DNA of 64,000 bases from an uncultured bacterium. GTDB taxonomy: Bacteria; CAYUVA01. The notes below the pieces were generated by a model. The model did no database searches, was not told where the DNA came from, and saw only the letters and a list, made by a program, of their open reading frames with translations. This document shows positions 1,396-48,760 of the stretch, piece after piece. How positions within the stretch are numbered: the stretch's first letter is position 1; each line of letters begins with the position of its first letter. Position numbers and translations under genes: made by a program. The stretch covers positions 1 to 64,000 of the forward strand of contig CAYUVA010000011.1 in NCBI GenBank assembly GCA_964448115.1, written 5' to 3'.

Positions 1396-4302
1396 CTACT
1401 CGCAGATCTCGCAAGGCAAGTTAGGCCATACTGGGCTGAAGTTCAAGCTCGAATCTCGCGCTTGTAACTGGAGCAGATATTCACCATTGGGGACTCCGGG
1501 ACCTACCGGTATATAAAGCGTCCAGACGCCGTCTCCAGCCACCCAGTCGCCATTAGTGCCGTTGTCATAAAGGAATACGCCGGTCGGAGCATGTTGCACG
1601 AGTATCTCTACCTGGCTGACATCGTTCAATCCATCTGCATCATAGACATAAGCCAATATTGTAATCTGCCCGCCGGTATCGGTGGTAACATCCGTATCCC
1701 AGTAGCCAGCAAGGTATATCATCGGTCTGTTAGCGCCTTTTTGCTTTGCATCATGGGATTCAAGATCCTCCAGGTAGGCATCGAGAGCATAACTGAACTG
1801 GTGGAAAACCTCCAGGTTATCGATCTTGGACAATCCCTTAGAGCTTGTAACCGGAGACTTGGCAAACACGCTCAGGTAGGGCCAGGTATCGATATTGGAA
1901 GCCTTGTCATAAGCTCGCATCTGGAAGGGATATTCGCCGACTGGTACCCCAGGAAGTATATTCAATGCCAGAGAGTAAAGGTCATCTCCCGCTACCCAGT
2001 CCCCGTTGATCCCATTATCATTTAATTCCAGTCCTAGCTCGGAGTTATCATAAAGCAGCGAAACCTTGGTTATGTCATCCTGTCCGGGCAGGTATGCCAT
2101 CATTAGCCAGATAGCAAAGTCGTTCTGGCAAATAATCGTATCCCAGAATCCCCCTGCGTAAATCTTTGGCGGTATTGCATCCTGAGTCGAGCTGACCGTG
2201 CGCGACCAGTCGCTCTCCTTGTCTGGATTGCCCTTTGCTTTTACCCTGTAATAATAGGTGGTCGCATGGGTAAGGTTGGTGAAGGTATGGCACAAGGCTG
2301 TTATCCATCCACTACTAGCAGCAAAGGTAAAACTTGGCGAGGTCGAAGCCTCTGCATAGTAGGCGATAGCCCCGGATCTCGATTCGTCGCTCCAGCAGAT
2401 CTCATTCTCTGTGCCAGCCGAATATGGCGGCTCCGGCGATATCTCAGGCGGGAAGGGGGGACCGGTCGGGCTTGGAGACGGGGTCCAAGTCCTGGTCGGT
2501 GTTGGAGTTGCCGTATCCACTGTCGGGGAAGCGGTCGGAGATGCGGTCGGCGTCGAGGTCGGCGGCTTGGGGACAGCCTCAGAGGCAGGCGACCACCAGC
2601 CCTCATGGTAGTGCACATTCTGACCAGAAGTCCGGTAAACATAGCACTGGTTGTTCTGTACGGTTTCGTCTCTATAGGTGGTCTCGGTCAGAAAAGCCTG
2701 GTTTATCTTGTGGTATGCAACCGGGGTTTCAGTAGCGACACATAAAGCTCGATAAACATTGTACCTGCTGGCATTCTCAGCCTCCCCCCAGGAGAGATCC
2801 ACATAACCATTGCCGCCGTAAGTAACCAGGTATCCCACCGGTCCGGGAGCATCTTCCAGCGGACGGGCATTGGCGTTGTTCGATGGCACCCCCTCGTTTT
2901 TTGCCCTGTCCAGTGAGGTTACATAGAAGTAGTACTCAACATCGTTTCTGAACAGCTTCACCTGGATTGCAGAGCCGGGATAGGGAATATCCTGTGGATT
3001 CCAGCGCTCATAGCTAGCGCCGTAGTCTGAGCTTTTATAAATATAATAACCAAGCAGATCCTCCTGTGTACAATGATCCCACCAAAAGGTTACCGCCCTA
3101 TCACCAGCGTTTGCAAAAAGATTGCCCGGCTTGCATGGCGGTACAGCATCCCAGTAATGGAAACCTAGATCCAGGGTCCCTATATCCGAGACGCCATCGG
3201 TTCTGGTGGTATATATATCAAGTCCCTCGATGGAGGCGTTATGTCCACCAGCATCTAAACAGCAACTGTCGTTGGTCTGCCCGCTGGCTACCTGTTCGAG
3301 GTAGAAATCTCCTCCGCCGCCGGTGAAAAAGCGCGGATTGCAGGAGATATTGCCATTCTCGCCGGTGGGGTCTTCCAAGCCAATATAGTTTTCGGTTGTA
3401 TTCTGCCATAGATTGTTATACTCGATAATAGCTGTGCTGTCCGATTTTAGATATATACCCCCGCCATCACCGTTTGCAGCGGTGGCTAAAGTATTAAAAG
3501 CGATGATATTATGCAGTATATGGGGACGAGAGCTGTTGTCTATCATGATCCCAGCACCATTGCGCCCTACCTGGCAGTAGGCAATTGTATTCGACCATAT
3601 CTCGGGCGTTGAATTGGAGTGCACCTCTATACCACCACCATCCTTTCCTGCGGAACAGTAAATTATCAGGTTATTGAATATGCGCGGACTTGATGCTGTA
3701 AGGTTAATTCCACCGCCAAAGTCGGTGCTCGGCGCATGGCAGTTTTGGATTATGTTGTTGGTTATGGTCAAGGTGGAGATGTTGCACTGGATACCGTGAT
3801 AGCAGTTCTGTATAACAAAGCCGTCTATCCTGCCGTTGTTTATGTTATAGCAAGCAAAGCCAGAACCGCTACCTCCGCCGTCTATGACCGTCTGGAAACT
3901 GGTTGGATCTCGTTTCCAGGTGATATGCTGATAGCCCCCATACATGTAAGTGTAGTTCTTCATAGTTACCTGGTTGGTCTGTTCCGGCTCGTGATAGATC
4001 CCTTCGGCAACATAAATAATATCGTCGTTATCCGCATAATTGACCGCATCCATGATCTTCTGGAAGGGGTTCTCCTTGGTGCCATCCCAGGTGGGACCCA
4101 TGTTCTGCCAATCCACATATATCTTTCGGGCAATGGGCGTATTGGTTGGCGTGGAGGTTGGCGTCGGAGGCGGAGTCGGGGTCGCCTTGGGGGTATCCCC
4201 GCCATATTTAGCCAAAACCGGCTGTGAAGCCAACAGTATCGTAACAGTTAGGGCTAGTATGGATACAAGGCATATCCGTTTATGGATTACAGAAGCTCTC
4301 AT
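1396..4302 (-). CDS. Secreted modular protein: signal peptide, Thr/Pro linker, parallel beta-helix (pectin-lyase-like), FN3-like domains, two C-terminal 'WPYL' domains
   Basis: 968 aa. Signal peptide ending VLA-K; DGTKENPFQKIMDAV...IYVAEGIY beta-helix start; GGGI/NNIIAFN repeats; FN3-like YYFYVTSLD and YYYRVKA; C-terminal NDNGINGDWVAGD loops (choice-of-anchor-X-like). Confidence 0.85.
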   Translation of the reverse strand: MRASVIHKRICLVSILALTVTILLASQPVLAKYGGDTPKATPTPPPTPTSTPTNTPIARKIYVDWQNMGPTWDGTKENPFQKIMDAVNYADNDDIIYVAEGIYHEPEQTNQVTMKNYTYMYGGYQHITWKRDPTSFQTVIDGGGSGSGFACYNINNGRIDGFVIQNCYHGIQCNISTLTITNNIIQNCHAPSTDFGGGINLTASSPRIFNNLIIYCSAGKDGGGIEVHSNSTPEIWSNTIAYCQVGRNGAGIMIDNSSRPHILHNIIAFNTLATAANGDGGGIYLKSDSTAIIEYNNLWQNTTENYIGLEDPTGENGNISCNPRFFTGGGGDFYLEQVASGQTNDSCCLDAGGHNASIEGLDIYTTRTDGVSDIGTLDLGFHYWDAVPPCKPGNLFANAGDRAVTFWWDHCTQEDLLGYYIYKSSDYGASYERWNPQDIPYPGSAIQVKLFRNDVEYYFYVTSLDRAKNEGVPSNNANARPLEDAPGPVGYLVTYGGNGYVDLSWGEAENASRYNVYRALCVATETPVAYHKINQAFLTETTYRDETVQNNQCYVYRTSGQNVHYHEGWWSPASEAVPKPPTSTPTASPTASPTVDTATPTPTRTWTPSPSPTGPPFPPEISPEPPYSAGTENEICWSDESRSGAIAYYAEASTSPSFTFAASSGWITALCHTFTNLTHATTYYYRVKAKGNPDKESDWSRTVSSTQDAIPPKIYAGGFWDTIICQNDFAIWLMMAYLPGQDDITKVSLLYDNSELGLELNDNGINGDWVAGDDLYSLALNILPGVPVGEYPFQMRAYDKASNIDTWPYLSVFAKSPVTSSKGLSKIDNLEVFHQFSYALDAYLEDLESHDAKQKGANRPMIYLAGYWDTDVTTDTGGQITILAYVYDADGLNDVSQVEILVQHAPTGVFLYDNGTNGDWVAGDGVWTLYIPVGPGVPNGEYLLQLQARDSSLNFSPVWPNLPCEICE

Positions 4303-4546
4303 AATTACACCTCTTTTATGAAGTCAAAGCGCATAAGCAACACCTTGTGAGGATAACATATATTTTCTTTTCCCTCATCACCTTTTTTATAACCGCATAT
4401 TTTATTTCTTTCCATTCCGGTGTCTTCAGGTGGAAAGACCTTCCCTCAATCATTACCTAATAAAAAATCAAGAAATTGTCAAGAAACCACAGCGCTGATT
4501 AGCCTGATCAATGATCTGGTTCGCTTTTTTTTTTTATCCCCTCCTA

Positions 4547-7042
4547 CTATAGTTTCTTGACAACAATATTTACGACTCGTCTTCCTGCGATGATAACCTT
4601 GATGACCTTCTTACCCTGTATCCATTTCTGAACTCTATCATTGGCGAGAGCCATCTGGGTCAATGTCTCCTCGGTGGCATCGACTGGTGCCCTCATCTTG
4701 GATCGCACCTTGCCATTTACCATGATAGCCATCTCGACCTCTTCACGCTTGATTGATTGCTCATTCCACCTAGGCCAGGGTGTCTCCAATAGCGTTCTGC
4801 TGGCTCCCATCCGCTCATTCAGTTCCTCAGATAGATGTGGCGCAAAGGGAGATAATAGAGATACCACCGTTTCCAGAGACTCTTTAATAACTGCCTGTGA
4901 ATCTTTTTGCGAAAAGACGGAATCATCGGAAACAAAGGAATATATCTTGTTTACCAGCTCCATCAGGGCAGCGATGGCAGTATTGAAGTGAAGGCGCTCA
5001 TTCAGTTCCTCGGTTACCTTCTTGATGGTCAGATGTACCTGTCGATGAAGCTCCCGCGGGGTAGGGGAGAGGTCTTGAGGCTTGAGGCTTGAGGGTTGGG
5101 GCTTTAGGCGAGGATAATATTCCTTGACCAGATTATAGACTCTGTTCAGAAAGCGATAAACTCCAGATACTCCGCTGCCGCTCCACTCAAGATCTTTCTG
5201 GGGAGGCGATGAGAAGAGCATATAAACCCGGGCGGTGTCTGCGCCGTACTGCTTTATCATATCATCAGGATCGACTACATTCCCCTTGTTCTTTGACATC
5301 TTGGCTCCATCCTTATACACCATTCCTTGGGTCAACAGGTTGGTAAACGGCTCATCGAAGCTAAGCAATCCAAGATCCCTCATTACTTTCGTGAAAAACC
5401 TTGCATACATCAGGTGCAAGATGGCATGTTCAACTCCACCGATGTAGCGATCGACCGGCATCCAATAAGCGACCTTTTTGGGATCGAATGGCGCTTGCTC
5501 GTGTTGTGGGCTGCAATAGCGGCAGAAGTACCAAGAGCTATCCACGAAGGTATCCATGGTATCGGTTTCCCGGCGAGCATCATTTCCGCAAGAAGGGCAC
5601 TTGACCTTGAAAAAATCCTCTCGCTCGACCAGTGGCGAGCTGCCAAATCCCTTGATCTTTACATCCAATGGCAATAGTACCGGTAGATCCTCAATTGGAA
5701 CCGGCACCATCCCGCAGTTACCGCAATAGATAATAGGTATCGGGGTTCCCCAGTAGCGTTGTCTGCTAATGCCCCAGTCGCGAAGCCGGTAGGTTACCTT
5801 GGCTCGTCCTATGCCTTTTTTATCCATATATTCGATTATCTTATCCTTGCCCTCTTCGCTAAAAGTGCCATCGAACTGATCTGAGTTGACCATTATTCCG
5901 TTATCGACATAAGCCTCGCTCATGGTCTTATCATCAAGCGAGCCGCTTGCATCCTGAATCACCACTCGTATAGGCAGATTGTACTTCTTGGCAAACTCGA
6001 AGTCTCGCTGGTCATGGGCTGGGACTGACATGACTGCGCCGGTGCCATATTCCATGAGCACGAAGTTCGCAGTCCAAAGCGGAATTGTCTCGCCGGTCAG
6101 TGGATTGATCATCTTTATACCGGTATCGATGCCCTCCTTCTCGGTCTCGGCAGATGTTCTGTCCATCTTGTTCTGGCGCATCACCTTGTTTCTAAAATCA
6201 GAAATTTGGCTCTTCTTGGTGTCATCGGTAACTAATTCATTCAACAAGGGATGCTCAGGTGCTATGACCATAAAGGTAGCGCCATAGAGTGTGTCAGGTC
6301 TGGTAGTGAATACAGCGATCTTATCATCAGATCCTGCGATGGGGAAATCGACCTCGGCTCCCTCGCTTCTGCCGATCCAGTTTCTTTGCTGTGTAATGAC
6401 CTGTTCGGGCCAGCCGGTCAGCTTGTCCAGAGCATTTAGAAGCTCCTCGGCGTAATGGGTGATCTTGAAGAACCACCCCTCCATCTCTCTTTGGGCAACC
6501 GGCACATCGCATCGCCAACAAAGCCCATTAACCACCTGCTCGTTTGCCAGCACGGTCTTGCATGACTCGCACCAATTAACAAAGGTTCTCTTCCTGTATG
6601 CCAAGCCAATTTCGAACATCTTGATGAAGAACCATTGACACCATCTATAATAATCAGCATCGCAGGTCTTAATCAGGCGATCCCAGTCGTAGCTCAAGCC
6701 CATGGACTTCATCTGTTGAATGATGATCTTGATGTTTTCATTAGTCCACTTCACAGGATGTATTCCTGACCTGATGGCAGCGTTCTCGGCGGGCATTCCG
6801 AAGGCATCGAAGCCGATGGGATGCAGTACATTGTATCCATTGCGTACCAGGTAGCGAGTCAAGGCATCACCTATCGTATAATTGCGAACATGCCCCATGT
6901 GCAGCCTGCCTGAGGGGTAGGGGAACATCTCAAGGCAGTAGAATTTTGGCTTATCCGACTTTTGGACATGGAATGTTTTATCCTTCTCCCATTTGCTCTG
7001 CCATTTTTGCTCGATTCTTATGTGGTCGTAACTAGATTCCAT
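4547..7042 (-). CDS. leuS: Leucine--tRNA ligase
   Basis: 831 aa; MFPYPSGRLHMGHVRNY (HIGH-like), FTTRPDT editing domain, DWGISRQRYWGTPIP, KMSKNKGN. Confidence 0.98.
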   Translation of the reverse strand: MESSYDHIRIEQKWQSKWEKDKTFHVQKSDKPKFYCLEMFPYPSGRLHMGHVRNYTIGDALTRYLVRNGYNVLHPIGFDAFGMPAENAAIRSGIHPVKWTNENIKIIIQQMKSMGLSYDWDRLIKTCDADYYRWCQWFFIKMFEIGLAYRKRTFVNWCESCKTVLANEQVVNGLCWRCDVPVAQREMEGWFFKITHYAEELLNALDKLTGWPEQVITQQRNWIGRSEGAEVDFPIAGSDDKIAVFTTRPDTLYGATFMVIAPEHPLLNELVTDDTKKSQISDFRNKVMRQNKMDRTSAETEKEGIDTGIKMINPLTGETIPLWTANFVLMEYGTGAVMSVPAHDQRDFEFAKKYNLPIRVVIQDASGSLDDKTMSEAYVDNGIMVNSDQFDGTFSEEGKDKIIEYMDKKGIGRAKVTYRLRDWGISRQRYWGTPIPIIYCGNCGMVPVPIEDLPVLLPLDVKIKGFGSSPLVEREDFFKVKCPSCGNDARRETDTMDTFVDSSWYFCRYCSPQHEQAPFDPKKVAYWMPVDRYIGGVEHAILHLMYARFFTKVMRDLGLLSFDEPFTNLLTQGMVYKDGAKMSKNKGNVVDPDDMIKQYGADTARVYMLFSSPPQKDLEWSGSGVSGVYRFLNRVYNLVKEYYPRLKPQPSSLKPQDLSPTPRELHRQVHLTIKKVTEELNERLHFNTAIAALMELVNKIYSFVSDDSVFSQKDSQAVIKESLETVVSLLSPFAPHLSEELNERMGASRTLLETPWPRWNEQSIKREEVEMAIMVNGKVRSKMRAPVDATEETLTQMALANDRVQKWIQGKKVIKVIIAGRRVVNIVVKKL
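5074..5108. repeat. Heptamer tandem repeat (CTTGAGG x3 plus two degenerate units) inside leuS
   Basis: CTTGAGG-CTTGAGG-CTTGAGG-GTTGGGG-CTTTAGG read directly; falls in the RLKPQPSSLKPQD segment. Confidence 0.8.
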
Positions 7043-7060
7043 GAACGTTACCTCGATCTT

Positions 7061-7195
7061 TTAGTTTTTTATCAATAATATACAGTATATCCCATGAATC
7101 TCCGCCTTATAACGACTCTTTGCTTCATCCTTTAGTGTTGACAACATCTGGAGCAATCTTCGTTGTGGAATAGATTTTGATTCAATACTTTTCAT
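7061..7195 (-). pseudogene. Probable truncated MNT-family nucleotidyltransferase (antitoxin-like), N-terminal remnant
   Basis: AAGGAG RBS then MKSIESKSIPQRRLLQMLSTLKDEAKSRYKAEIHGIYCILLIKN*. Resembles an MNT N-terminus and diverges just where FGS-x-x-RG would begin. Confidence 0.45.
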
Positions 7196-11906: not shown

Positions 11907-12150
11907 TTAATCTTATTTTTGACAAAGCCCCTATTTGAGCGATCTAGTTTTTAAAAAAGGCAATGGCACTTGGATCCTCAAATTATACCCCCATGAATAT
12001 TAGCTTTAGGTGGTGGTTTATATGCACTATTCTGATATTTATTACGCAAAAACGCCCTACAAATATAATTTTGTATGCATAATTTGATTATTTGAACCAA
12101 GCTCAGTTATTTGTTGCTCTCGATATTTACCGGTGATTTTTAGGCTAATG

Positions 12151-13092
12151 CTAAAGATCGAACAGGTTGGTGCTAAGATACCTCTCGCCGTTGTCAGGGA
12201 GAATAACAACGATCAGCTTGCCCTCGTTTTCAGGTCTTTTTGCCACCTGTAAGGCAGCCCAGGCGGCGGCTCCGCTGGAGATTCCAACAAACAGCCCCTC
12301 CAAGCTGGTCAGTTTCCTGGCTGTATCCATTGCATCTCGGTCGGTTACTTGGATGATCTCGTCGATAAGATCCACCCTAAGAATATCGGGCACGAATCCT
12401 GCGCCGATCCCTTGTATCTTATGAGGTCCCTTTTTCCCTCCTGACAAGATTGGCGAGGATGCTGGCTCTACAGCAATTGCCTTGAATGATGGCTTGCGCT
12501 GTTTGATCACCCCTGCCACACCTGTGATTGTACCTCCAGTGCCAATGCCTGATACCAGGATATGGACCTTGCCATCTGTATCACGCCAGATCTCCTCAGC
12601 GGTCGTCTTTCTGTGAACCTCGACATTGGCGGGGTTCTTGAACTGCTGGGGCATGTAGTAGGTATCGCTTTGTTCGAGCAGTTCCTCAGCCTTGGCGACT
12701 GCTCCAGCCATGCCTTTATCGCCTGGAGTCAAGACCAGTTCCGCTCCGAACGCCTGAAGCAACTGCCTTCTCTCCATGGACATAGTGTCAGGCATGGTAA
12801 GAATGAGTTTATAGCCCTTAACCGCAGCCACGAAAGCCAATCCGATGCCCGTGTTTCCGGATGTTGGCTCTACTATGGTCATTCCAGGCTTGAGCAAGCC
12901 CTTTTTCTCCGCGTGCTCGATCATGGATAGAGCGATCCTGTCCTTGATGCTAGACAGTGGATTGAAGGATTCAAGCTTGGCTGCCACCGAAGCGACACAA
13001 CCTTGGGTTATCCTGTTGAGCCAGACCATTGGCGTATTGCCGATGGTTTTAGTGATGTCATCATGTATTTTGGGGAGATCGTGTTTCATCAT
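12151..13092 (-). CDS. cysK: Cysteine synthase A
   Basis: [14 protein letters not shown] (PLP lysine), [33 protein letters not shown]. Confidence 0.97.
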
Positions 13093-13226
13093 TATACTCC
13101 ATTTGCATGTTCAAGTATTAAAAACAACTCCACCATGCATTTATTCCCCGTCAGCGCTCTTGAAAAGCTCATTTGCATCTATCAAGTCCATTGATCCAAC
13201 ACGATGACCAAGCTTCAATTCGGCTC

Positions 13227-13254
13227 TTGACAGCGAGCAAAAAAGTCATATAAT
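13227..13254 (+). promoter_or_regulatory. Sigma70-type promoter for tRNA-Gly (possibly also dnaN)
   Basis: Perfect TTGACA (13227-13232), 16 nt spacer, TATAAT (13249-13254), 14 nt upstream of the tRNA. Confidence 0.85.
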
Positions 13255-13268
13255 TATCATCGTAGGCT

Positions 13269-13341
13269 GCGGGAATAGCTCAGTTGGTAGAGCAATACCT
13301 TGCCAAGGTATGGGTCGCGGGTTCGAGTCCCGTTTCCCGCT
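13269..13341 (+). tRNA. tRNA-Gly(GCC), CCA not encoded
   Basis: GCGGGAATAGCTCAGTTGGTAGAGCAATACCTTGCCAAGGTATGGGTCGCGGGTTCGAGTCCCGTTTCCCGCT; cloverleaf with GCC anticodon and TTCGA loop. Confidence 0.97.
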
Positions 13342-13525
13342 TTTAAGGTATTAGGAACGGCTGCTAAATAAGCGAAATTAAATGGTAATTGCCCTATCAT
13401 TGGAGCTTTTTTCTTGTCTTTCAAGGTGCTATTGATATTCTTGTCAATGTTCGTATATTCTGTTACCATCAGGATACTCTAATGAGTTAGGAATAACTAA
13501 TCTTTTAGACAAAAGAGGTGCTGAT

Positions 13526-14728
13526 ATGGAGTTTAAGATCGATCGAGACATTTTGTTGGATGGGATAACGAGCGTCCATCATGTCATCGAGAAGATATCC
13601 TCTCGCCCCATCCTGTCCAATATTTATATCGAAGCCAAGGATGGCAAACTGGAGCTAATGAGCACGGATATCAATATCGCAGCCCGAAACTTCGTTCCTG
13701 CTGAGATAATCGTGCCCGGCGCCATCACTACTAATGCACGCAAGTTGATGGAGATCCTTGAAAACATGCCCCAATCCGAGGTTCACTGCACGGTAGATGA
13801 AAACTTGTGGGTCAATCTTACCTGTAGAAAAACCGAGTTCCATATCGCTGGCATGGATGCGGCTGAATTCCCTGATTTCCCTGAGTTCCCCATCAGCGAT
13901 GATGAAATGATGGTGCTGCCCCGGGAGGCTTTGCTTGACCTGATCGACAGAACCAGTTTTGCCATCTCGGTTGATCCCCTAAGACCGATTCTCTGCTCTA
14001 CTAAGATAAATGCATCGAACAATCGAATAACGGCAGTAGTAACCGATGGATATCGATTAGCACACTGCACTCACTTGATCGACGATAATCTTGATTTCTC
14101 GGTTCTCATTCCATCCAAGGTAACCAAGATGCTCCAAAAGGTGCTTCCCAATGCAGAGGAGGAACTACTTTTTTACCAAGAGGCGGATCATATCTATTTC
14201 AAGTGCGAGGAATTCAGCGCCTTCTCCAGACAGTTCACCGGACAATATCCCAACTATGAATCGGTCTTTCCCAAAGATTATGCAATCATAGTACAATTTG
14301 AGAAAGAAGAGGTGCAGAAGGTTATGAAGAGGATGTCGCTCATCGCTTCCGAGAGCACCTTTGGCGTACTTGTGGAATCACGGGACAACATGATGTATTT
14401 CTATACTGAGAACCCGGTACTCGGAGATGCAAGGGATGAAATAGCGATCCAAAAGCAGGGACCTGATTTTATATTGGCATACAATCCCAAGTTATTCAAC
14501 GATATCCTGGCAGCGGTTAAGGGCGATAGAATTTATATGAAACTAGACTCCCCCCCCAAGGCTGCTATCTTCACCAGCGATGAGGATGAAAACTTCTTCG
14601 GTCTGCTGATGCCTTTAAGGGAAGTAAATCCAGAGGTCGAAAGCGTTGTAGATCGATTCGAGTCCGAACAAAGCCAAGATGATAATAACCAGGTTCAAGA
14701 CCCATCAGAAGAAGGTGAAGAATCTTAG
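13526..14728 (+). CDS. dnaN: DNA polymerase III beta clamp
   Basis: PILSNIYIEA, TDGYRLA, YPNYESVFP, LLMPLR, followed by an acidic tail. Confidence 0.95.
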   Translation: MEFKIDRDILLDGITSVHHVIEKISSRPILSNIYIEAKDGKLELMSTDINIAARNFVPAEIIVPGAITTNARKLMEILENMPQSEVHCTVDENLWVNLTCRKTEFHIAGMDAAEFPDFPEFPISDDEMMVLPREALLDLIDRTSFAISVDPLRPILCSTKINASNNRITAVVTDGYRLAHCTHLIDDNLDFSVLIPSKVTKMLQKVLPNAEEELLFYQEADHIYFKCEEFSAFSRQFTGQYPNYESVFPKDYAIIVQFEKEEVQKVMKRMSLIASESTFGVLVESRDNMMYFYTENPVLGDARDEIAIQKQGPDFILAYNPKLFNDILAAVKGDRIYMKLDSPPKAAIFTSDEDENFFGLLMPLREVNPEVESVVDRFESEQSQDDNNQVQDPSEEGEES

Positions 14729-14789
14729 TTTATAGCTAGCGCCCTCTTAACTGCTGCTAATATAACCTTACAACCATAAACATAAATAC

Positions 14790-18375
<3,586 letters not shown>

Positions 18376-29301: not shown

Positions 29302-31620
29302 ATGGAAAACAAGGTAAAAGTTTACGCTGTTCTATTGGTATTGCTCGCTTTTGCAGCATGGTCGTGGGCGGCTTATCCGCCAGGGTTCCAGGTCTTCTTC
29401 AACAATGCCTCGGAAGGAGAAAGCAACGACATCGACACCGAGCTTATCGCATTCATCGACTCGGCACAGGTGAACATCTCGGCTCATTTTTACCAGATCA
29501 ATCACATGGGCATTGTAGATGCTTTTGTAAGGGCTGCTAATAGGCTTGGTCCTTGTAATGTCCGCATCATTAGCGACGCTCACTACTCGCAGGATCCAAA
29601 TCCGGATTACAACCAGGCTTACAAGGCGCTGATCGATGCAGGTATCCCAGTAATCGATGAGACATGCGACGGCTCCTCAGACCAGTCGGAACATAGCCAT
29701 AACAAGTTCTGCATCGTTGATGAGGAAGCGGTTTGGACAGGAAGTTACAACATCACGCACAATGGCACCTTCAACAACAATAACAATGCGGTGCTGATTG
29801 AGGATGCCGGGCTAGCACAGGCATTCCTTACCGAGTTCAACGAGATGTGGGGCTCAAGCGGATGTGTTCCAGGCTGCGGCTCGACCTCTAAGTTCGGCAA
29901 TAAAAAGGCAGATAATACTGCCCATAACTTCAATATTGGCGGCGTGCAAGTGGAGGCTTACTTCGCGCCTAGCGATGGGTGCGAGCAGGCGATCTTGAAT
30001 GAGCTGTCCGCTGTGGATCAGGGCGTCTATTTCTGTATCTTCGTGTTTACCACCAATAGCATGGGAGATTCTATGATCGCAAGTTACGACAGCGGCTACG
30101 AGATTATGGGTGTCTTTGATAACCTCCAGGCATGGACGCAATACAGCGAGGGCACAAAGATGCGCAACCACGGGATGCCAGTCAAGGCAGACAGTGAGGT
30201 AGATCCACACGGAGATCTCCTGCATCACAAATTCATGGTAATCGATCCCTACGGTCATGATCCGACCGTAATCACTGGTAGCTATAACTGGACCGCCTCT
30301 GCGGAGGAAGATAATGACGAGAATATCCTTATCATCCACGATCCTGTTATAGCGCAGGCTTATTACCAGGAGTTTCTGAAGCGGTACTATGGCGATGAGA
30401 TTCCCACAGCGGAGCTTGTGATCACCGAGGTTATGGCAAATCCGCTGGAAGAGAGCACAGGAGAGTTTATCGAGATCTACAATTATGGAACTACTAGCGT
30501 TGATATGACTGGTTTCAAGATTACTGACGGCGATTCGACAGAAGAACTGTTTTCGTATTCAGGTGGTGATATGGTTCTAGGAGCGGGTAAATATGCTCTG
30601 ATTCTTGACCCCGATTATGCAGGCGAGTACTCGATTCCTAGCGGCACGCTACTATTGACCACAGGAGATAGCGCCATTGGTAATGGCTTGTCAGTGAATG
30701 ACCCTGTAACTTTATATGGCTCAGATGGCTCAACGGTAATCTCGACTTACGCTCATCCATTTAATCCAGGCAATGGCATCTCGGCGGAGAAGATAGATAT
30801 TCTTGGTGCGGATACAGCGGATAATTGGGCAGCCTCAACCTGTGCAAGCGGTAGCTCTCCTGGCGAGGTAAATTGCGTATCCCCACAGCCAAACACAGCG
30901 CCGGAGATATATGCGCTGGGTTATCTGGGCAGCTATATCAGCAGTCAATGGGGCGGCAACCTCGATATCCTGGTCATGGTGGATGATGCAGACGGCTGGC
31001 AGGATGTTACCGATGTGCAGATTCTCATGGGCGGTTCGCCGTCGGGTTTACATCTAAGCCTGGATAATCATTACGATGAGACGGTAACTAGCTGGACATT
31101 TCACGGCTCAGTAAGCCCGGGAGCAGCCAGGGGAGATTATCTGTTGGAGTTCGTGGCAACCGACAGTCAAGGAAATCAAAGCAATATATTCCCCTACATC
31201 ACCATTTACTCGGAAACAGGCGCACAAAATTACCGGATAAACGCTTTCCAGAGGGCGCTTGTGAGCAATAAGGCGATCATACTGGCAAATAAAAAGGCTA
31301 AAACAGGAAACCATACGCCTGTAATACTTGCTGGCGGTTACCTTTATCCCAAGGTTACCTATGAAAGCGGAGGGATTCTAGGCTTAACGGTGGTTGCAGA
31401 TGATGCAAACGGTGTGCTGGATATAATCGGCGCCCAGTTATGGTATGGAGGTAGTTACACGGGGATAGACCTGTATTCACTTGGACCTGGCGTCTATGAG
31501 GTAGCGTTCGATGTAGCACCAGGTATGCTTGATGCAGGTATCTACAGTCCGTTTGAGGCATTGGTTTATGACACGGGATATTCAGAGAGCGACCTGTGGC
31601 CATACTTGCGGGTGCATTAG
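29302..31620 (+). CDS. Secreted phospholipase D-family nuclease/lipase with lamin-tail domain and two C-terminal 'WPYL' domains
   Basis: Signal peptide; two HKD motifs (HNKFCIVD..TGSYN, HHKFMVID..TGSYN); LTD (LVITEVMANP..EFIEIYN). Confidence 0.88.
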   Translation: MENKVKVYAVLLVLLAFAAWSWAAYPPGFQVFFNNASEGESNDIDTELIAFIDSAQVNISAHFYQINHMGIVDAFVRAANRLGPCNVRIISDAHYSQDPNPDYNQAYKALIDAGIPVIDETCDGSSDQSEHSHNKFCIVDEEAVWTGSYNITHNGTFNNNNNAVLIEDAGLAQAFLTEFNEMWGSSGCVPGCGSTSKFGNKKADNTAHNFNIGGVQVEAYFAPSDGCEQAILNELSAVDQGVYFCIFVFTTNSMGDSMIASYDSGYEIMGVFDNLQAWTQYSEGTKMRNHGMPVKADSEVDPHGDLLHHKFMVIDPYGHDPTVITGSYNWTASAEEDNDENILIIHDPVIAQAYYQEFLKRYYGDEIPTAELVITEVMANPLEESTGEFIEIYNYGTTSVDMTGFKITDGDSTEELFSYSGGDMVLGAGKYALILDPDYAGEYSIPSGTLLLTTGDSAIGNGLSVNDPVTLYGSDGSTVISTYAHPFNPGNGISAEKIDILGADTADNWAASTCASGSSPGEVNCVSPQPNTAPEIYALGYLGSYISSQWGGNLDILVMVDDADGWQDVTDVQILMGGSPSGLHLSLDNHYDETVTSWTFHGSVSPGAARGDYLLEFVATDSQGNQSNIFPYITIYSETGAQNYRINAFQRALVSNKAIILANKKAKTGNHTPVILAGGYLYPKVTYESGGILGLTVVADDANGVLDIIGAQLWYGGSYTGIDLYSLGPGVYEVAFDVAPGMLDAGIYSPFEALVYDTGYSESDLWPYLRVH

Positions 31621-41211: not shown

Positions 41212-41218
41212 GGAATGA

Positions 41219-41908: not shown

Positions 41909-43087
41909 ATGGCAAGAAGAGAGAAGATACTAAGAGCAATTAGATATCCCAGCATAATCAAGAATCGCCTTTTAAGGAAGCTGGGGGACTGGAAGATCGA
42001 CTATCATCTAGGCAAAGGCAAGGCGTTTCCTCCCTACACCGTCTTTATGGCGCCGACCTTCAGGTGCAACCTCAAGTGCATAATGTGCAGCATCAAGGAC
42101 ATGGTTCACGACAAGAACCTTCCTGCTGAGGTGAAACGATTATATAGCGAGCTATCCTGGGAGGATATGAAGAAAGTGGTGGATAATTTCTGCCAGATAA
42201 AGCCGAATGTCTACCTGGGCGGCGGAGATCCGATGGACTACCCGCATATCCTTGACCTGTTGGAGTATGTTCTTTACCACCATCACTGCTTTATAGGCAT
42301 GACCACTAACGGCACATATTTCAATCAGGATGTCGCAAAGGAGATAGTAAGGCTTAAGGTGCCGTATATCCATATATCCTTTGATGGCATACATGAAGTC
42401 TTTGATTCGGTGCGCGGAAAGGGAGTCTTTGAGAGAGCATTGAGGGGATTCGACAACATAATCGAGCAAAAAAAGGTTCAAAAAAGCGAGTTCCCGGAAC
42501 TTTCGATAGTATATACGATTACCACAACCAACTACCATAACCTGGTCGATACATGGAATTTCTTCGTTGAGCGCGGGGTGAAGAATTTTCTGATCCAGCA
42601 CCTGGCTTTCTTTCCACCGGATCTCCTTAGGGCTAATAATGAAAAATATGATGACCCGCTGTTTCATGTTGGCTGGGAGTATGGTGGCGCGCAGATTGAG
42701 GCTGATAAGATAGACATAAACATGGAAGTATTCATCGAGCAGATTGAAAAGCTAAAGCAGTTGCATAAACAGACAAAAGGCTCAACACTGAAGTTCATAC
42801 CCGAGCTTTCCCCCGAACTGCTACGCATATACTACTCTGACCAGCCAATGCCGGTAACAAAGGATGACCTCTGCCTCGTGCCCTGGAAGTTCACCGTCGT
42901 ATATCCGAGCGGTGATGTCATGGTAACCAGCTTCTGCTTCTTCCAGACCATGGGTAACCTGCTAAAGCAGGATTTCATGGAGATTTGGAACGGTGAGAAA
43001 TACCAGAAGGTGCGCAGATTCCTCAAGAAGGAGAAATGGATGCCAGTCTGCACCAAGTGCAAGGGTATCTATGGAGGATGTACCTAA
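41909..43087 (+). CDS. Radical SAM protein with C-terminal SPASM/twitch domain
   Basis: CNLKCIMC; GGDP; CLVPW...GDV..C...GNL..IWNG...CTKC. Confidence 0.88.
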   Translation: MARREKILRAIRYPSIIKNRLLRKLGDWKIDYHLGKGKAFPPYTVFMAPTFRCNLKCIMCSIKDMVHDKNLPAEVKRLYSELSWEDMKKVVDNFCQIKPNVYLGGGDPMDYPHILDLLEYVLYHHHCFIGMTTNGTYFNQDVAKEIVRLKVPYIHISFDGIHEVFDSVRGKGVFERALRGFDNIIEQKKVQKSEFPELSIVYTITTTNYHNLVDTWNFFVERGVKNFLIQHLAFFPPDLLRANNEKYDDPLFHVGWEYGGAQIEADKIDINMEVFIEQIEKLKQLHKQTKGSTLKFIPELSPELLRIYYSDQPMPVTKDDLCLVPWKFTVVYPSGDVMVTSFCFFQTMGNLLKQDFMEIWNGEKYQKVRRFLKKEKWMPVCTKCKGIYGGCT

Positions 43088-43130
43088 ACCTGAACCTTAA
43101 AATTGACACCTTTAGTCGCTCACCTGATCT

Positions 43131-43637
43131 ATGGCTATAACGGTAAGAACCAGAACGGTCCGAATAGTCGGCGGCATTATTCTGGGCTTGGTCGTTATCT
43201 TCTACCTTCTCTCAAGGGATGATCCTTTGGAGTCAGCGCTTAATGGGGCAATTGATGCTGTTTTTCGAGAAGATATGCCACGACTGATGGGATATTTTGC
43301 TGAGGATTATCGAGGTCAGTTCGGCAATACGAAGGTTGACCTCAGGCTTTATGCCCAGCGGGGCTTCGAGAAGTATGACAAGATAAAGATCATCACACCG
43401 CTCAAACAGACGAACAAACAGGACCACAAGGCTGTAATAGACCTTCGCTTCAAGGTGGTAGCGACCTTTGATCGGGGGAGATTCTATCTTGCCGGGAGTT
43501 TCACCGAGACAGAGCGCGCAATCATCCAATACATTAAGAAAGATGGAAGATGGCTGATCCAGAGCATCGAGTTTCCTCAGTATAGCTTCAAATCAAAGCA
43601 AGAAATAGACCATCAAATCGAGGCGGTTTTGGATTGA
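43131..43637 (+). CDS. Membrane-anchored hypothetical protein (NTF2-like fold suspected)
   Basis: N-terminal TM; FAEDY and KKDGRWLIQS ending typical of SnoaL/NTF2-like domains. Confidence 0.6.
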   Translation: MAITVRTRTVRIVGGIILGLVVIFYLLSRDDPLESALNGAIDAVFREDMPRLMGYFAEDYRGQFGNTKVDLRLYAQRGFEKYDKIKIITPLKQTNKQDHKAVIDLRFKVVATFDRGRFYLAGSFTETERAIIQYIKKDGRWLIQSIEFPQYSFKSKQEIDHQIEAVLD

Positions 43638-43693
43638 TTTATGAACCAGGTTTAATAATTCGTTGTTCGGCTTTGGTTGTTATTCATCTTATT

Positions 43694-46600
43694 TTATTCA
43701 TCGACATTGAGATATGGCCATAGGGGACTTAGGTTGCCATTATCGTTACCGGCGACCAGTTCGAGCATGTGTTGCCTTGCCTCCATGCCTGCACCCACCG
43801 GGATGTCAGCCATGCCATAAACGCCAAGCCTTTCATCCAACACCGGCAAATAGATGCCAGTGGGGCTTTGTCCAAGATAGATCTCTACATAGCTGACCCC
43901 CGTGTCCCTATCCACAAAGGCATAAAGATTTAACACTCCACCTGTTTGCGATGAAATTCGGGTGGTCATGTAACCGGAGACCAATATGCGTGGCACAACC
44001 GCGCTGGTCGGCGTTGCGCTCGGCGTTGAGGTCGGAATTGCTGTCCCAGTTTGAGTCGGCGACGATGTCGGGGTGCTAGTCGGTATTGCGCTCGGAGTTG
44101 TGCTGGGAGTCAGGCTTGGAGTTGAAGTTACGGTCGGTGATGCGGTTGCTGTAAAGGTCGGCGTTAGTGATGGCGTTATAGTCGGAGTTGAGCTTGGTGT
44201 ATTCGTTAGCGTGCTGGTCGGAGTTTGCGTGGGACTCGATGTAGGCGTGTCGGTCGGAGTGAGGCTTGGGGTGGCGCTTGGAGTTCTGCTTGGCGTGTTG
44301 CTCGGCGTTGCTGTGGGACTAAAGGTGGGTGAATTAGTTGGCGTACCGGTAGGCTCCAGCAGCTCTATATAAGCATCGGGTGTTTCCGGCGCATGCTCAA
44401 TAAAGCCGAGAAGATCTACCCCAATGGTGTAAAACTCGAACAGGCCATAGCCGCCAAGCTCAAACAGGTCGATGGTTACCGGGCTGCTATATATTGGCAT
44501 ATCCAGCGTGTCCCAGGATCCATATTCATATCGAAAATAAAGGGTTGCATAATCGAAGCCGACCCCCTGATCATAATAGCTGAAGTTGATATCGATCACT
44601 GGTGTAACCGTATCCGGCGGCAAATAAAGAACCTCGGTCATCGGTGGCGAGTTATCCTGAATTGAACTCACCGGTTGGGACCAGATGCTCTCGGTCAGCC
44701 ATAGATCGCGGTACTTCACTCGGTAATAATAAGGTCTATTTTCGGTTAGCTGGCAGAACTGGTAATTAGTATCGTAAATCCAGCCTGAGTTCAGGTCAGC
44801 ACTGGTGAAATCGCTGTTCATATCAGCCTCGATGTAGTAGTCGAGCGCATTATATATGCCAGCGTCGCTCCACCATAAGGTGTTGCATAATCCAGCCGTG
44901 TAGGGTGGCTCCGGGGTGATAATGACTGGAGGTCCAACCGTGTAAGTGGCGGTCGGGGTCAAGCTCGGAGTCAGGCTCGGAGTCCTGGATGGCGTTGTGC
45001 TCGGAGTCAGGCTAGCTGTGTTGGTCGGCGTTGTGGTCGGTGTTAGGCTGGGGGTGTTGCTGGGGGTCGATGAGGGGGTCATGGTCGAGGTGGGGGTGCT
45101 GCTCGGGGTCGCCGTGGCGGTTGGAGTCGTAGTTGGAGTTTTAGTCGGTGTCGGCGTGGATGAAGGAGTCGAGGTCTCGGTTGCAGTTGGAGTGGTTGTC
45201 TCTGTGCTAGTTGGTGTTGCAGTCGGGCTTTGGGTCGGTGTCTGCGTCTCGGTCACGGTCGGGGTAGAGGTTACAGTGTTGGTCGGGGTTTGCGATGGGG
45301 TTGAGGAAGGCGTCTGTGATGCAGTGGTGGTTGGAGTGCTGGTCGGGCTTCTGGTCGGCGTATTGGTTACCGTCGGCGTCTGGCTTGCTGTGCAGGTCGG
45401 GGTCGCAGTCGGCGTAAAATATGCAAGTATGAAATCATAGTAAGCATCATGTCCACCGAGACCCAGATTGTTCTCTATCACCACATAGTGAAGTTCCTCG
45501 CTGGTAAAGATATACTCCATGTAAGCAGGATCAAAGCCACTTTGTTTGATTGGATTGAGCATCTTGTCATAAAGGTAGATGATCGCCTGGGAGTCAGCGC
45601 CGATATCATTTGCCATGAACACGGTCGTATCAGAGGTGCGGCTGATAAACTGGTGCCAATCTATATCCCCAGCATAGCAGAAGTAATGTCGGGTAGCTCC
45701 AGTCAAGTAGTTGATGAACTTTGCCTGGTAATACTCATCATCAGGCTCATAGAAATCGACATCGCTGCAAGGGGTATTGGTCGGGGTCATGGTAGGCGTA
45801 ACCGATGGGGTATGTGTCGGAGTGCGCGTGTTTGTCATGGTCGGGATGATGGTCGGAGTCATGGTCGGGGTTATGCTCGGAACATTGGTATTAGTCGCTG
45901 TAGGGCTAGCGCTTGGGGTGCTTGATGGGGTAGATGTCGCGGTCGGTGAGAGGGTTGAGGTATGGGTTGGAGTATTGGTTGAGGTAGCGCTTGGGGTTGC
46001 GCTAGGTGTGCTGGTAACCGTTGGCGTGTTTGTAGGGGTCGAAGATGGGGTATTCGATGGCGTCCTGGTCGGCGATTGAGTTGCTGAACCGGTCGGCGTG
46101 GCGCTGGGGGTCATGGTCGGGCTAACGGTTGCAGTATTGGTAGGAGTATGCGTCCTTGCCAGAACCTGAATGTTGTAGTCTGCCGCTGGGCTTCCCCAGG
46201 CGCTTCCCAGGGGATCGACCACGAAATAATAGAAGCTTGACGAGGGGAACAAACCGTAGGTGAGCTTTGCCGCGCCAGTCTCGAAATCAGGAGCGGCAAA
46301 CGCTAACTCGTTGCTAGCCCATTGATCGTAAAGCGTGATGGAGGTCTTTACATTATTACCCAAGTCCGATGTCCAGAAATCGTAAGTATATTGCGCGGTT
46401 GCAAAGAATATATGCCAATCACGATCCGTCATAGTACAGAAGATCTCCTGGATCGGATAGCCGTTGGTATCGATTATGGTGGCATCTTCGGGTTCATCAT
46501 TTCCAAAGGGGTACTCCACCGGATCATCCATCCAGCATGGTGTATTGGTAGGCGTGCTGGTGGGGGTTAGAGTCGGAGTTGGGGTGTTGGTGGGGCTTGC

Positions 46601-48760
46601 TGTTGGAGAAGTAGTCGGCGTGTTGCTTGGCGTCCAGGATGGCATGCCGGTATAAGTGGCGGTTGGCGTCTTGGTAACCGTGTTGGTTGGCGTGTTGCTA
46701 GGTGTTCTTGATGGAGTACCAGTAGGCGTTGGTGTGCCAGTGGGAGTGTGTGTGCAGGTACTGGTTTCGGTGGCGGTTGGACTATGAGTAGCCGTGTAAG
46801 TGGGGGTTGTTGTCGCGGTGGAGCTTGGCGTTCGGGTCGGCGTTTGGGTTGGAGTATGAGTCGAGGTAAATGTCGGTGAATAGGTCGGGGTACTAGTGGG
46901 AGTACTGGTCGGAAGGTCTGTTGGGGTCGGCGTGCTGGTCGGCCACCCGGTTGGGGTCAATGATGGGGTTAAAGTCGCTGTATTTGTCGGCGTGGAAGTA
47001 CTAGTCGGCGTTCTGGTCGGTGTGTGGGAGGGAGTGCGAGTCGGCGTTTCGCTCGGAGTCTGGGTCGGTGTTTCGCTCGGAGTCTGGGTCGGAGATCTGG
47101 TAGCTGTATGCGTGGGCGTGAAGGTCGGCGTTGCACTAGGCGTGGAGGTAGGAATATTGGTATCAGTCGGGGTGCTGCTCGGGGTGTGGCTTGGTGTCCT
47201 GCTCGGAGTCGCGCTCGGGGTTGCGGTCGGAGTATCCGTGCTGGTTGGGGTCGTGCTCGGGGTTACAGTCTCTGTCGCGGTTGGAGTCGTGGTCGCCGTA
47301 TTCGTTACCGTTAAAGTCGGTGTTACCGTTGGAGTAATAGTCGCTGTAGCTGTTGGAAATGTAGTAGGTGTGAAACGGTTGATCCTGACCTTGTAGTCGC
47401 TGGCTCCATGTGTTCCCCAGCCCGAGCCAGTAGGGATGACCAGAATATAATACCACCATTCAAAGTTGTCCGAAAAATCTATCCTGGAGGACCCTGGCTC
47501 AGATCCTGAGTCATTGTCCGAGGCTATCATCTCCATGGAAATCATGTTTTGGAGATACATGAAAGTATCAACGCTTGGATCGAGATCGAAGGTCTCTATC
47601 GAATAAGTCTGGTTTGGGTGATCGTATCTGAAGGGGATTAGATCATTATCTAGAAGATCACAAAAGAGATGTTGTTGAGCTATGCCTCCATCCTGGATCG
47701 GCTTGATCCAGTTCGGTGCCTCTGTCGGAAAAGGAGCTGCGTCATAATCATTAGGCTCATAAGCATCAACATCGGAGCAGGGTGTCGGTGATGTGGTAGG
47801 AGTAGGTGTGCGCGTAGGTGTACGAGATGGGGTATAAGTTGGCCATCCGGTTGGAGTGTGGGTTGGAGTGCGGGTCGGGGTGCGGGTTGGGGTTCTAGTG
47901 CGTGTCGGGGTTCTGGTTGGTGTAGCGGTGGGTATATAGCAATCCACGGTACCAACCATCTTCATATCAACACCAAGTTCTACGCATAGATCCCACCATT
48001 GCCCGTTATAATAGTTCCAGGCAGTGCAGTTGGAGCATCCAGACTTATATACAAACCATGCGTTGCAAGGATTGTAATAGAAATAATACTCCAGAAAATA
48101 ATTGGCACCTGTGTTTTCCAGGCAGCATGATCCAGAATATATATTTAAAATCAGATTCCAATAAGTTGGATCTGAGTGGCTCGGTATCTCCCAGGTGCCT
48201 AGATATCCTCCACATACTGTGTTTCCTGGTCTTTTGCAGCCACCACCGAGGTCGTATTCTTGCTTTAATGAGACCAATATCGATTGAGTACAGGCTCCAG
48301 AGCCACCAACCCTGAATATTGTATGTTCAGTCTGAATTAGACAGAAATATGGACAGTTTGGGCACTGAGATGGGTTAATTTGGCGGGCATAAGCTTCATC
48401 CCCGGTAAAGAAATTGGCCCATGGGTAACCATAGACCCCAGTATATTGGCTTTGCCCAAGACTGCATGATAGCTTACTGTCTTTTGACTTTCTTAAAGTA
48501 GTCGATTCTATGTCGGAAACTTCTTTCAGGAAGACATGGATCTCATGTTTCTCTGCATCCACATAGTACTCTCCCGGCTCCAAGCCATCCAACCTGTCCT
48601 TGCGAATAAATTTAATCTTGGAGAGATCCTTAGGGATATCCTCCTTCGATTGTACAATGGTGGATGAAGTAAAAATGAGAAGTATAATCGTCACAATAAA
48701 CCATGTATATGTTTTCCCTGGGATAGCTATCGAGTACGACTTGCTTGTTGTTATATTCAT
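43694..48760 (-). CDS. Large secreted surface protein with long Thr/Pro linkers, three PPC-like domains, FN3/Ig-like domains and a C-terminal 'WPYL' domain
   Basis: 1688 aa; signal peptide; Cys-rich N-domain; repeats opening DVDAYEPND / [11 protein letters not shown] / DVDFYEPDD; long TPT tracts. Confidence 0.85.

Follow-up and report, generated by a model that had tools for sequence, protein, structure and literature searches.

What is the function of a domain that recurs at the ends of exported proteins with quite different passengers: does it direct their export, hold them in place afterwards, or simply extend them? The question is raised by a 64,000-nucleotide stretch of DNA from an uncultured bacterium (the window), in which the preliminary description had picked out five copies of such a domain. 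All five are in frame, in open reading frames 1396-4302(-), 29302-31620(+) and 43694-48760(-).

A recurrent domain on exported proteins

Carrier 1 (P0001, 968 aa; 1396..4302, minus strand) consists of a signal peptide, a beta-helix (DUF1565), FnIII domains, a P/T linker and a tandem pair of the domain. Its first copy (1864..2172, minus strand; residues 711-813) is joined to the second, terminal copy (1396..1728, minus strand) by a linker (1729..1863, minus strand) predicted to be helical (model residues 116-139, pLDDT 60-67), and the last residues of the second copy are predicted to complete the last strand of the first. Carrier 2 (P0002, 772 aa; 29302..31620, plus strand) has a signal peptide, two PLD domains, a lamin-tail domain and a tandem pair (30898..31209 and 31315..31620, plus strand); the linker between its copies (31210..31314, plus strand) is helix-like, with a basic end and without Trp. 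Carrier 3 (P0003, 1688 aa; 43694..48760, minus strand) begins with a signal peptide, continues with unassigned domains between long P/T/S linkers, and ends in a single copy (43694..43999, minus strand) directly preceded by a P/T/S-rich stalk, read from the sequence at approximately 44000..44347 (minus strand). The signal peptides were judged by inspection and with a crude hydrophobicity test. In an alignment of the five copies, 8 columns are invariant and identity to the first copy is 29-40%. The hosts, at first taken to be unrelated, are only partly so, since the beta-helix and 1688-aa proteins have a common FnIII-like stretch (44-47% over 80-89 aa); their passengers are otherwise unrelated.

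An HMM seeded from the five window copies was iterated on the 17,286 six-frame ORFs of the genome of the window (G000; diderm, 94.45% complete). At E<=1e-3, and before filtering for near-full-length copies, it gave 201 matches in 165 ORFs, in line with the many matches that the preliminary description had looked for as support, while the same ORFs reversed gave one match (E 0.51); the matches are therefore not due to chance. The domain is about 105 residues long and Ig/FnIII-like, with 198 near-full-length copies in 162 ORFs and a median identity among copies of 31%. It ends at most 15 aa before the stop in 142 of the 162 ORFs (88%), and for these the original placement at the extreme C-terminus stands; it does not for the other 20, where the domain lies inside the chain, in five cases solidly N-terminal and directly behind the signal peptide. 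Multi-copy carriers account for 36 of 165, with four-copy proteins besides the tandem ones.

An N-terminal hydrophobic stretch was present in 148 of 152 complete carriers vs. 926 of 2,336 other proteins, and the 135 terminal carriers with a passenger fell into 100 sequence clusters, which bears out the earlier view of a domain on exported proteins with different passengers. Carriers also make up 91 of the 105 proteins with P/T linkers. Indeed, the domain marks nearly all large modular exported proteins of G000, the longest exported non-carriers resembling envelope machinery, lipoproteins or membrane-tailed proteins (by eye, 90 longest of 119). A crude lipobox pattern matched in 9 of 152 carriers. 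Carrier C1:74029 has a membrane helix C-terminal to its pair, an arrangement that fits a periplasmic location equally well. Altogether, carriers represent 161 of 2,928 non-overlapping genes (about 5%) and 151,094 of 1,213,588 aa (12% of coding capacity), and this one domain is probably how their products reach or stay on the cell surface.

As initially proposed, the domain matches no known family: no Pfam family reached its cut-off, and a search of 45 copies against the curated families of Pfam and NCBIfam (E<=0.05) gave no full-length match. The resemblance to choice-of-anchor X (NF041940, 37 positions) noted at the outset is real and local. Within the window this model matched both copies in the beta-helix protein, over 23-26 residues and with 28.1 (1396-1728) and 21 bits against a cut-off of 25, the other three of the five copies giving no match; P0001 scored 42.3 bits, and P0004, a stand-alone protein described below, 25.2. 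Across the 45 copies, 19 matched at E<=0.05, with 18-26 of the ~105 residues covered. NF041940 thus accounts for an optional Asp/Gly loop alone (1504..1572, minus strand, in carrier 1; a candidate Ca2+ loop) and not for the whole domain, whose defining motifs A-G-Y and W-P-Y-L lie outside it. The loop is present in 45 of 125 single and 28 of 35 second copies. It should be noted that the carriers would be annotated 'choice-of-anchor X', a term not found in the literature searched; nor was a description of the domain found there (coverage excluding subscription journals and bioRxiv supplements).

By sequence searches, the domain is restricted to a few uncultured lineages, in keeping with its first description as lineage-specific. 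By HMM, at least 76 loci, of the 95 listed in a DNA pattern scan, contained it. Eighteen genomes are clearly positive: G000, 11 from the phylum of G022, and G054-G059. A GyrB tree made by a quick method (27 rows, without G012, G036, G060 and the second G053 match; G045 gave no match) placed the domain-positive lineages in one unresolved neighbourhood with negatives inside, a pattern compatible with a single origin but not showing one.

Predicted pairing of domain copies

The monomer model is all-beta (pLDDT 93.7), with an unpaired C-terminal tail. Searched with Foldseek it gave no match at E<=0.001, and a PDB sequence search gave a single match (E 0.061). In the ESM Atlas, unnamed clusters scored 0.91-0.92 and Ig-family leads below 0.9, while fold comparison gave generic Ig/FnIII matches, the best (Z 7.7) to FnIII domains of glycoside hydrolases; neither a T9SS CTD nor a pilin was among the matches listed. 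The tandem model of carrier 1 (pTM 0.85) has strands at 99-103 and 251-254. Single Ig chains of ~90 aa (1k85, 2vsd, 6k7o, 5eiv, 1g1c, 9kvu and 2w1n) aligned to its residues 1..254/255, adding about 6 C-terminal residues compared to the monomer model, on which most alignments ended at 102-103. The swap in the tandem model is deduced from these alignment ranges and not from coordinates.

The single copy of carrier 3 was also predicted to pair with P0004, whose gene lies outside the window (G000:C4:99847-100407 = L040:7848-8408). Across three runs this complex scored 0.85, against 0.00 for the best of 3 controls, with contacts agreeing at least 62% and a partner pLDDT of at least 68, a mark that 116 of 157 solved complexes attained, compared to 2 of 215 mismatched pairs. 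Its contacts are reciprocal between tail and strand (97-163, 99-160/161 and 77-183), and the two first strands also meet (7-11 with 81-84). Since near relatives of a genuine partner pass this test as well, the result backs the pairing of copies rather than P0004 as the partner. Two predictors thus suggest that the copies dimerise, the stretch that follows the invariant W-P of one copy completing the last strand of the other. Residues G84 and P181 of P0004, both within the predicted interface, are 99% conserved (427 copies), and in 125 of 141 terminal copies the chain ends 5-7 residues past the Pro. Taken as a whole, the interface was no more conserved than the remainder (p=0.28), and in a coevolution analysis of 428 copies the predicted inter-chain pairs did not rank high (81-85, 163-183 and 160-185 at 4108, 4772 and 383, respectively, of 5253). 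Coevolution thus gives the swap no independent support. Where domains are repeated, predictors may produce swapped dimers; fold, dimer and swap are all predictions here.

P0004 is the product of one small gene per genome, encoding a signal peptide, a Trp-containing amphipathic helix and the domain. Besides G000, every positive genome (11 of 11) of a different phylum, that of G022, has this stand-alone gene, where it is the best-scoring copy in 9 of 11 and is retained despite few carriers (4-47 matches). In G022 it is a whole gene, according to orthologues and P0169. The stand-alone protein looks like the linker of a tandem carrier joined to its second copy: an HMM of second copies, trained on other genomes, scored higher for every stand-alone (12 of 12) and for 29 of the 35 second copies, compared to 10 of the 35 first copies and 43 of the 125 single ones. 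The linkers are amphipathic (moment 0.458 vs. 0.382±0.010 for shuffles, none of 200 as high), and a basic-small dipeptide lies upstream of 20 of 35 second copies. A search with P0004 for related loci gave 24 pattern matches, 0 of them confirmed. No stand-alone was found in G054-G059 among the 150 matches listed of 203, one 248-aa contig-end frame being left out; in G057, 16 of 19 carriers are tandem, vs. 36 of 165 multi-copy in G000, although three single-copy carriers occur there as well.

By eye, the stand-alone has neither a lipobox nor a membrane helix (P0004 is without Cys), and its N-terminal helix lies outside the confident interface of the complex model; no anchor is therefore identified in it. 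Its gene neighbours are conserved in at most 8 of 12 loci and not in G000, so that no operon defines a machine; a search for RNA records containing the stand-alone locus listed none. Among paralogue families beside carriers, none was convincingly enriched (best 3/4, uncorrected).

Proposed docking and its alternatives

On balance, we are inclined to view the domain as a non-covalent, strand-swapped docking or anchoring module for exported proteins rather than a T9SS-type export signal. Each copy would be an Ig/FnIII-like sandwich of seven strands, the last of them truncated. The chain is predicted to turn off at the invariant Trp-Pro, its final 5-7 residues (Y-L-x-V) completing the sheet of a second copy, and reciprocally, while the first strands of both copies would meet antiparallel at the invariant Gly; with completion reciprocal, the working unit would be a pair. 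Tandem carriers would form it in cis, with the Trp-containing amphipathic helix between the copies, and single-copy carriers in trans, most plausibly with the stand-alone protein, rebuilding the pair-plus-helix unit. The helix would be the likeliest part to bind the envelope or a higher-order coat. The signal peptide would take cargo across the inner membrane, with type II secretion as the default guess for the outer one. We infer the anchoring, the choice of partner and the export route. The distribution and architecture of the domain and the stand-alone gene are seen directly, as is the exchange of the domain for other modules on homologous C25 peptidases from related genomes (n=8): two end in the domain, one in Dockerin_1 (26 bits, cut-off 22.9) and five in another unnamed module that is not detectably related to it (HHalign probability 0.4%).

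The most serious alternative, which we nonetheless regard as unlikely, is a C-terminal export signal like that of the T9SS: an outer-membrane machine would recognise the folded domain, single or paired, in the periplasm, export the cargo and perhaps cut off the tag, the stand-alone being a co-secreted partner that completes the signal. The predominantly terminal position would fit, as would the presence of the domain on nearly all large modular exported proteins (the non-carriers looking otherwise by eye), cargo like that of the T9SS (C25, S8, FG-GAP, PKD, beta-helix) and the position of the domain at the place where PorU-like proteins have their CTD (G022:C20, G057:C21). G000 also encodes 12 FadL/PorV-like barrels, 4 Omp85 proteins and 6 secretins. 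A signal of this kind is harder to reconcile with the five N-terminal and 14 further internal cases, with tandem and four-copy carriers, and with the replacement by a dockerin, which is an anchor rather than a signal. Moreover, the best PorV and PorU scores in G000 are far under cut-off (34.1 of 90 bits, with the control over cut-off, and 84.6 of 420 bits, with no control over it), and GspD does not track the domain, since 19 of the 21 genomes, the 3 without the domain among them, had it above its cut-off. The FadL/PorV-like barrels were set aside as dedicated partners, having no clear clustering with carriers (2/13 adjacent and 6/13 within two genes; background 10% and 18%). Of the earlier proposal of an export or surface-docking tag read by an unknown machine, the docking tag thus fits better, given the internal and N-terminal copies and a predicted partner that is another copy; the export signal is less supported, and no dedicated machine was identified.

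It seems quite unlikely that the domain is instead a monomeric Ig module, binding a ligand (glycan or LPS) or serving as a structural, Ca2+-stabilised spacer expanded in these lineages, with the swap an artefact of prediction. The common fold, the lack of coevolution between the inter-chain pairs and the occurrence of the Asp/Gly loop in internal repeats of the unrelated giant proteins P0041, P0044, P0125 and P0149 are consistent with such a module, but the tight tail length, the asymmetry between first and second copies, the conserved helix, the stand-alone gene and the concordant pairing in two predictors would be unexpected of a passive spacer. Quite unlikely, too, is a coat, with the stand-alone as an abundant subunit of the envelope that dimerises through the swap and assembles through its helices into an S-layer-like mesh, cargo being built in via copies of the subunit domain: the stand-alone is indeed encoded by a single gene and shows the highest conservation of any copy, close relatives have its N-terminal helices conserved as well, and a surface could be tiled by a two-fold pair together with a helical oligomer, but the stand-alone was not found among the matches listed for G054-G059, the predicted swap is closed rather than open-ended, and promoter and terminator scans were at background level, with no sign of high expression.

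Extended to surface display in several uncultured phyla, the docking module allows a more tentative proposal: any exported protein might become attachable by gaining a single Ig domain whose last strand is incomplete, the domain locking by reciprocal exchange onto a small dedicated partner or a fused copy of it, and the partner's Trp helix, possibly freed or activated by a Lys/Arg-specific C25 protease, might tie the pair to the outer membrane or a coat. If so, one self-pairing fold would achieve what otherwise takes a T9SS CTD and a sortase, or a dockerin and a scaffoldin; diderms would gain a further mechanism of surface display, and the domain would be a compact protein coupling module that tolerates sequence change. 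Two small recombinant proteins would suffice to check the central claim without culturing the host, and the domain profile is an immediate exoproteome marker for these phyla; the domain recurs in other uncultured lineages with unstudied envelopes. New here are the dimer prediction, the stand-alone gene, the mostly tandem lineage in which no stand-alone was found, and the exchange on C25 peptidases.

Relation to known systems

Terminal sorting and docking modules are of a known kind; none of the families tested matches a module that would pair with its own kind through reciprocal exchange of tails, a small dedicated protein being the partner. One parallel is the T9SS CTD of Bacteroidota (TIGR04183 / PF18962), likewise an Ig-like end domain on many unrelated signal-peptide proteins, C25 peptidases included. 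This CTD is described as Bacteroidota-restricted and cleaved by PorU (PMC10202324). In contrast, the domain described here is not strictly terminal and also occurs paired and alone. The profiles TIGR04183, TIGR04131 and PF18962 gave no match in the 45 copies (Pfam, NCBIfam, E<=0.05), and SprA and TIGR04183 none genome-wide in G000, nor in the control genomes.

The dockerin of the dockerin-cohesin pair (PF00404) is similarly a terminal, non-covalent docking module behind P/T linkers. The present domain differs in being modelled as all-beta, not as a duplicated EF-hand helical repeat, and in having a predicted partner of its own fold rather than a cohesin scaffold; PF00404 had no match in the 45 copies. 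The same was true of SLH (PF00395), whose repeats are helical. SLH and CWB2 cell-wall anchors may be N- or C-terminal and common to many surface proteins, and the T7SS has small partner proteins (WXG100/PE-PPE) that complete the cargo's targeting unit. All of these are helical modules of monoderm or mycobacterial envelopes, whereas the host here encodes LpxC and Omp85.

In type V pilins (P. gingivalis FimA/Mfa1), a Pro-containing loop is where the C-terminal strand exits the domain it belongs to, so as to complete a neighbouring one, with Arg/Lys-type C25 proteases nearby (PMC13655056). To that extent, the strand leaving at a Pro-containing loop and the nearby C25 proteases resemble what is predicted here, as may the basic-small dipeptide before second copies. 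Type V pilins, however, are lipoprotein precursors that polymerise head to tail, whereas the domain described here would form a reciprocal, closed swap and is fused as a tag to ~160 cargos.

The WPYL domain family and its host

All five WPYL copies that the preliminary description had placed in the window were recovered in position, and an HMM built from the copies and iterated gave 201 matches in 165 of the 17,286 ORFs of the host genome, G000 (reversed ORFs gave a single match, E 0.51). With three tiny fragment ORFs left out, there are 198 domains in 162 ORFs; 142 copies end within 15 residues of the stop, and six have their start in the first 60 residues of the protein; a single one of these six is weak and lacks the W-P motif. 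Median pairwise identity among copies is 31%. Of 2,928 non-overlapping genes, 161 encode carriers, which make up 12.4% of the total residues. A signal-peptide-like start was seen in 148/152 complete carriers vs. 926/2,336 other proteins by a crude hydrophobicity test, and a membrane helix beyond the N-terminal region in 1/152. Proteins with P/T linkers are mostly carriers (91/105), and the passengers vary widely (135 group into 100 clusters), including PLD nucleases, beta-helices, S8 and C25 peptidases, FG-GAP and other propellers, PKD and GH31.

Some carriers depart from this pattern. The tail of the beta-helix carrier 1 (window 1396-1420, minus strand) unusually contains Cys after a diverged W-P motif. 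Only the carrier at C1:74029-76473 of G000 has a membrane helix and basic tail beyond its tandem pair; this protein could serve as a docking site tethered to the membrane, or could be a family member in the periplasm. In two orthologous carriers of ~1,700 aa (L257:902-5944 and L258:1002-6143), the second copy is longer and strongly diverged, with both terminal motifs kept.

No Pfam family matched more than two of 45 WPYL copies, and NCBIfam choice-of-anchor X matched only the optional Asp/Gly loop (19/45), whose residues co-vary as one unit and form a candidate Ca2+ site. Sequence searches found no solved relative; the monomer model is a confident seven-stranded sandwich with generic Ig/FnIII matches only. 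Identity with a T9SS CTD, already doubted in the preliminary description, fails on the features testable here (profiles and host genes, against the available part of PMC10202324).

Bacteria-wide sampling of 40 other genomes gave 20 matches in one from a different phylum (G022) and one weak partial match in each of two more. In the phylum of G022, 11/14 genomes are positive, the other three having zero matches at E 1e-6. A pattern scan of genome contigs gave at least 95 loci, of which 76/95 were HMM-confirmed. Among the loci it listed, 63/80 with titles were confirmed, from 18 assemblies: five labelled CSSED10-310, two 'Ca. Coatesbacteria', nine without label, one Acidobacteriota (three matches genome-wide) and one Planctomycetota (a weak match, zero genome-wide). 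Genomes G054-G059 have 29-40 matches each. At E<=0.001, 1,321 of 1.84 billion representatives matched, a count that takes in loop-only relatives; the domain was C-terminal in 94/125 non-self proteins examined. CSSED10-310 is described as Gram-negative and sister to Acidobacteriota (PMC8248873), and the domain is not mentioned in the available part of that account. A GyrB tree does not resolve how the positive lineages relate. By genome sampling and pattern scan, the anticipated lineage restriction holds: the WPYL domain is a genuine and large family, confined to certain lineages, that lies outside the curated libraries that were searched.

G000 (3.98 Mb in 86 contigs; completeness 94.45%, contamination 0.46%) alone represents its phylum in the collection used. 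The host is a diderm, with four Omp85 genes, six secretins and LpxC. The six secretin loci of this ~4-Mb genome (on C1, C6, C14, C15 and C40) apparently belong to type II secretion, type IV pilus and Tad systems, as labelled partly by recognition. The C40 locus, which we likewise take to be type II secretion and whose GspD scores above cut-off, offers a possible route for WPYL cargo, although such systems occur in WPYL-negative genomes too. Twelve FadL/PorV-like outer-membrane barrels encoded by G000 are paralogues of 400-480 aa (C60:7249, C5:111540, C39:31063, C2:151798 and eight more). Within the window, GC skew changes sign, from negative to positive, at 12000-16000, near what we recognise as a dnaN-recF-gyrB-like cluster (13526-18375), a possible replication origin region; no dnaA-like ORF was noticed directly upstream of the cluster.

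Exchange with other terminal modules and readings of function

Eight homologous C25 peptidases scanned from related genomes end in a WPYL domain (two), a dockerin (one) or a second unnamed module (five). Such exchange is what anchors do. In G000, the WPYL domain is missing from the five ORFs that have the second module and from five whose tail is hydrophobic and presumably IPTL-like.

The second module (~115 aa) is mostly C-terminal in exported proteins of WPYL lineages (L252:5929-6288, L253, L254, L255, L216 and L256, alignment A8; in G000, C31:30646, C1:135238, C19:51866, C18:67904 and C6:29515). Pfam and NCBIfam gave no match on five of its tails, and HHalign detected no relation to the WPYL domain. 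C25 peptidases of G022:C20 (L217), G050:C27 (L259) and G057:C21 and C15 (L216) carry one or other module where a T9SS CTD would be; three of this set have long PorU-model matches (190-243 bits, cut-off 420), and those in G000 and G045 are partial only. Separately, a lone ~14-residue P-x-x-P-x-P-x-[DN]-G-A-T motif, elsewhere the start of an Ig domain, ends five exported G000 proteins (C1:76596, C16:63855, C29:36661, C53:14193 and C61:14109), after a WPYL copy in four and in a likely lipoprotein in the fifth. It is possibly a second donor-strand tag.

We consider it somewhat probable that the WPYL domain is a docking or anchoring module. Its N-terminal and internal copies are as expected if docking requires a free strand rather than a free C-terminus; the same copies in G000 speak against an export signal, which we regard as unlikely. 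Of the 'export or surface-docking tag' first proposed, the docking part therefore gains from the anchor exchange and the export part loses ground. A passive or ligand-binding module seems quite improbable, and a lattice subunit slightly more so. In the available part of an S-layer survey (10.1101/2024.05.28.596244), the status of Acidobacteriota is ambiguous and CSSED10-310 goes unmentioned.

The stand-alone protein and predicted strand exchange

A candidate docking partner is P0004, encoded by a stand-alone gene of G000 (C4:99847-100407) and made up of a signal peptide, some 55 residues and a single WPYL domain. All 11 positive genomes of G022's phylum have one such gene, the top-scoring copy in 9/11, with an invariant Trp ahead of the domain; metagenomes contain additional relatives. 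None was found in G054-G059 among the best 150 of 203 matches; of 12 short frames there, six checked are all tandem, five more are too short (83-108 aa) and one was left out. In 8/12 loci (L041, L053-L055, L057, L058, L060 and L061), the neighbours are a ~450-aa gene, which we take to be ATP-grasp-like, and a membrane glycosyltransferase-like gene; G000 differs.

Tandem linkers resemble the pre-domain part of the stand-alone protein: they have median lengths of 35-38 residues, are never P/T-rich, contain Trp in 25/35 and 73/115 cases, exceed shuffles in amphipathicity and are modelled as helical (pLDDT 60-67). Since linkers match, and since stand-alones resemble second copies (12/12) and singles lean towards first copies (82/125), a tandem looks like a single copy with a fused stand-alone. 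In G057, 16 carriers are tandem and three single, vs. 36/165 multi-copy in G000; the three are exceptions for which the model must invoke homodimers or incomplete assembly. Immediately before 20/35 second copies there is a Lys/Arg-Gly/Ala dipeptide, which is likewise found before 2/35 first and 3/125 single copies (shuffles: mean 6.1, maximum 14 in 1,000), and in only 28/115 cases in other genomes. Cleavage there is speculation. Each of the six partial PorU/C25 matches found in G000 is itself a carrier.

The monomer model leaves the residues beyond the W-P unpaired, and most structural alignments to it end at residue 102-103. In the tandem model (pTM 0.85), alignments with single Ig chains run from residue 1 through 254-255, with about six residues gained at the C-terminal strand of these chains, so that the tail of copy 2 is predicted to complete copy 1. 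When the single copy of carrier 3 (P0003) was submitted with P0004 to a second predictor, the pair scored 0.85 in three runs vs. 0.00 for the best control, with contacts agreeing in at least 62% and partner pLDDT of at least 68; the mark for this score is reached by 116/157 solved and 2/215 mismatched pairs. The model shows reciprocal tail exchange, with antiparallel first strands centred on small A/G-G residues. Both 99%-conserved residues fall within the predicted interface, and 125/141 terminal copies end 5-7 residues past the Pro. The interface as a whole is no more conserved than the rest (p=0.28), and coevolution did not single out the predicted inter-chain pairs. Related copies would probably pass the complex test too, so P0004 is a candidate partner only.

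The models thus suggest a specific, testable mechanism for the family, in which WPYL domains would exchange strands reciprocally to pair with a small, conserved partner. Among the papers examined, the closest mechanism in print is the strand exchange of type V pili (PMC13655056, available in part), where the exchange, in contrast, is open-ended and starts from lipoproteins.
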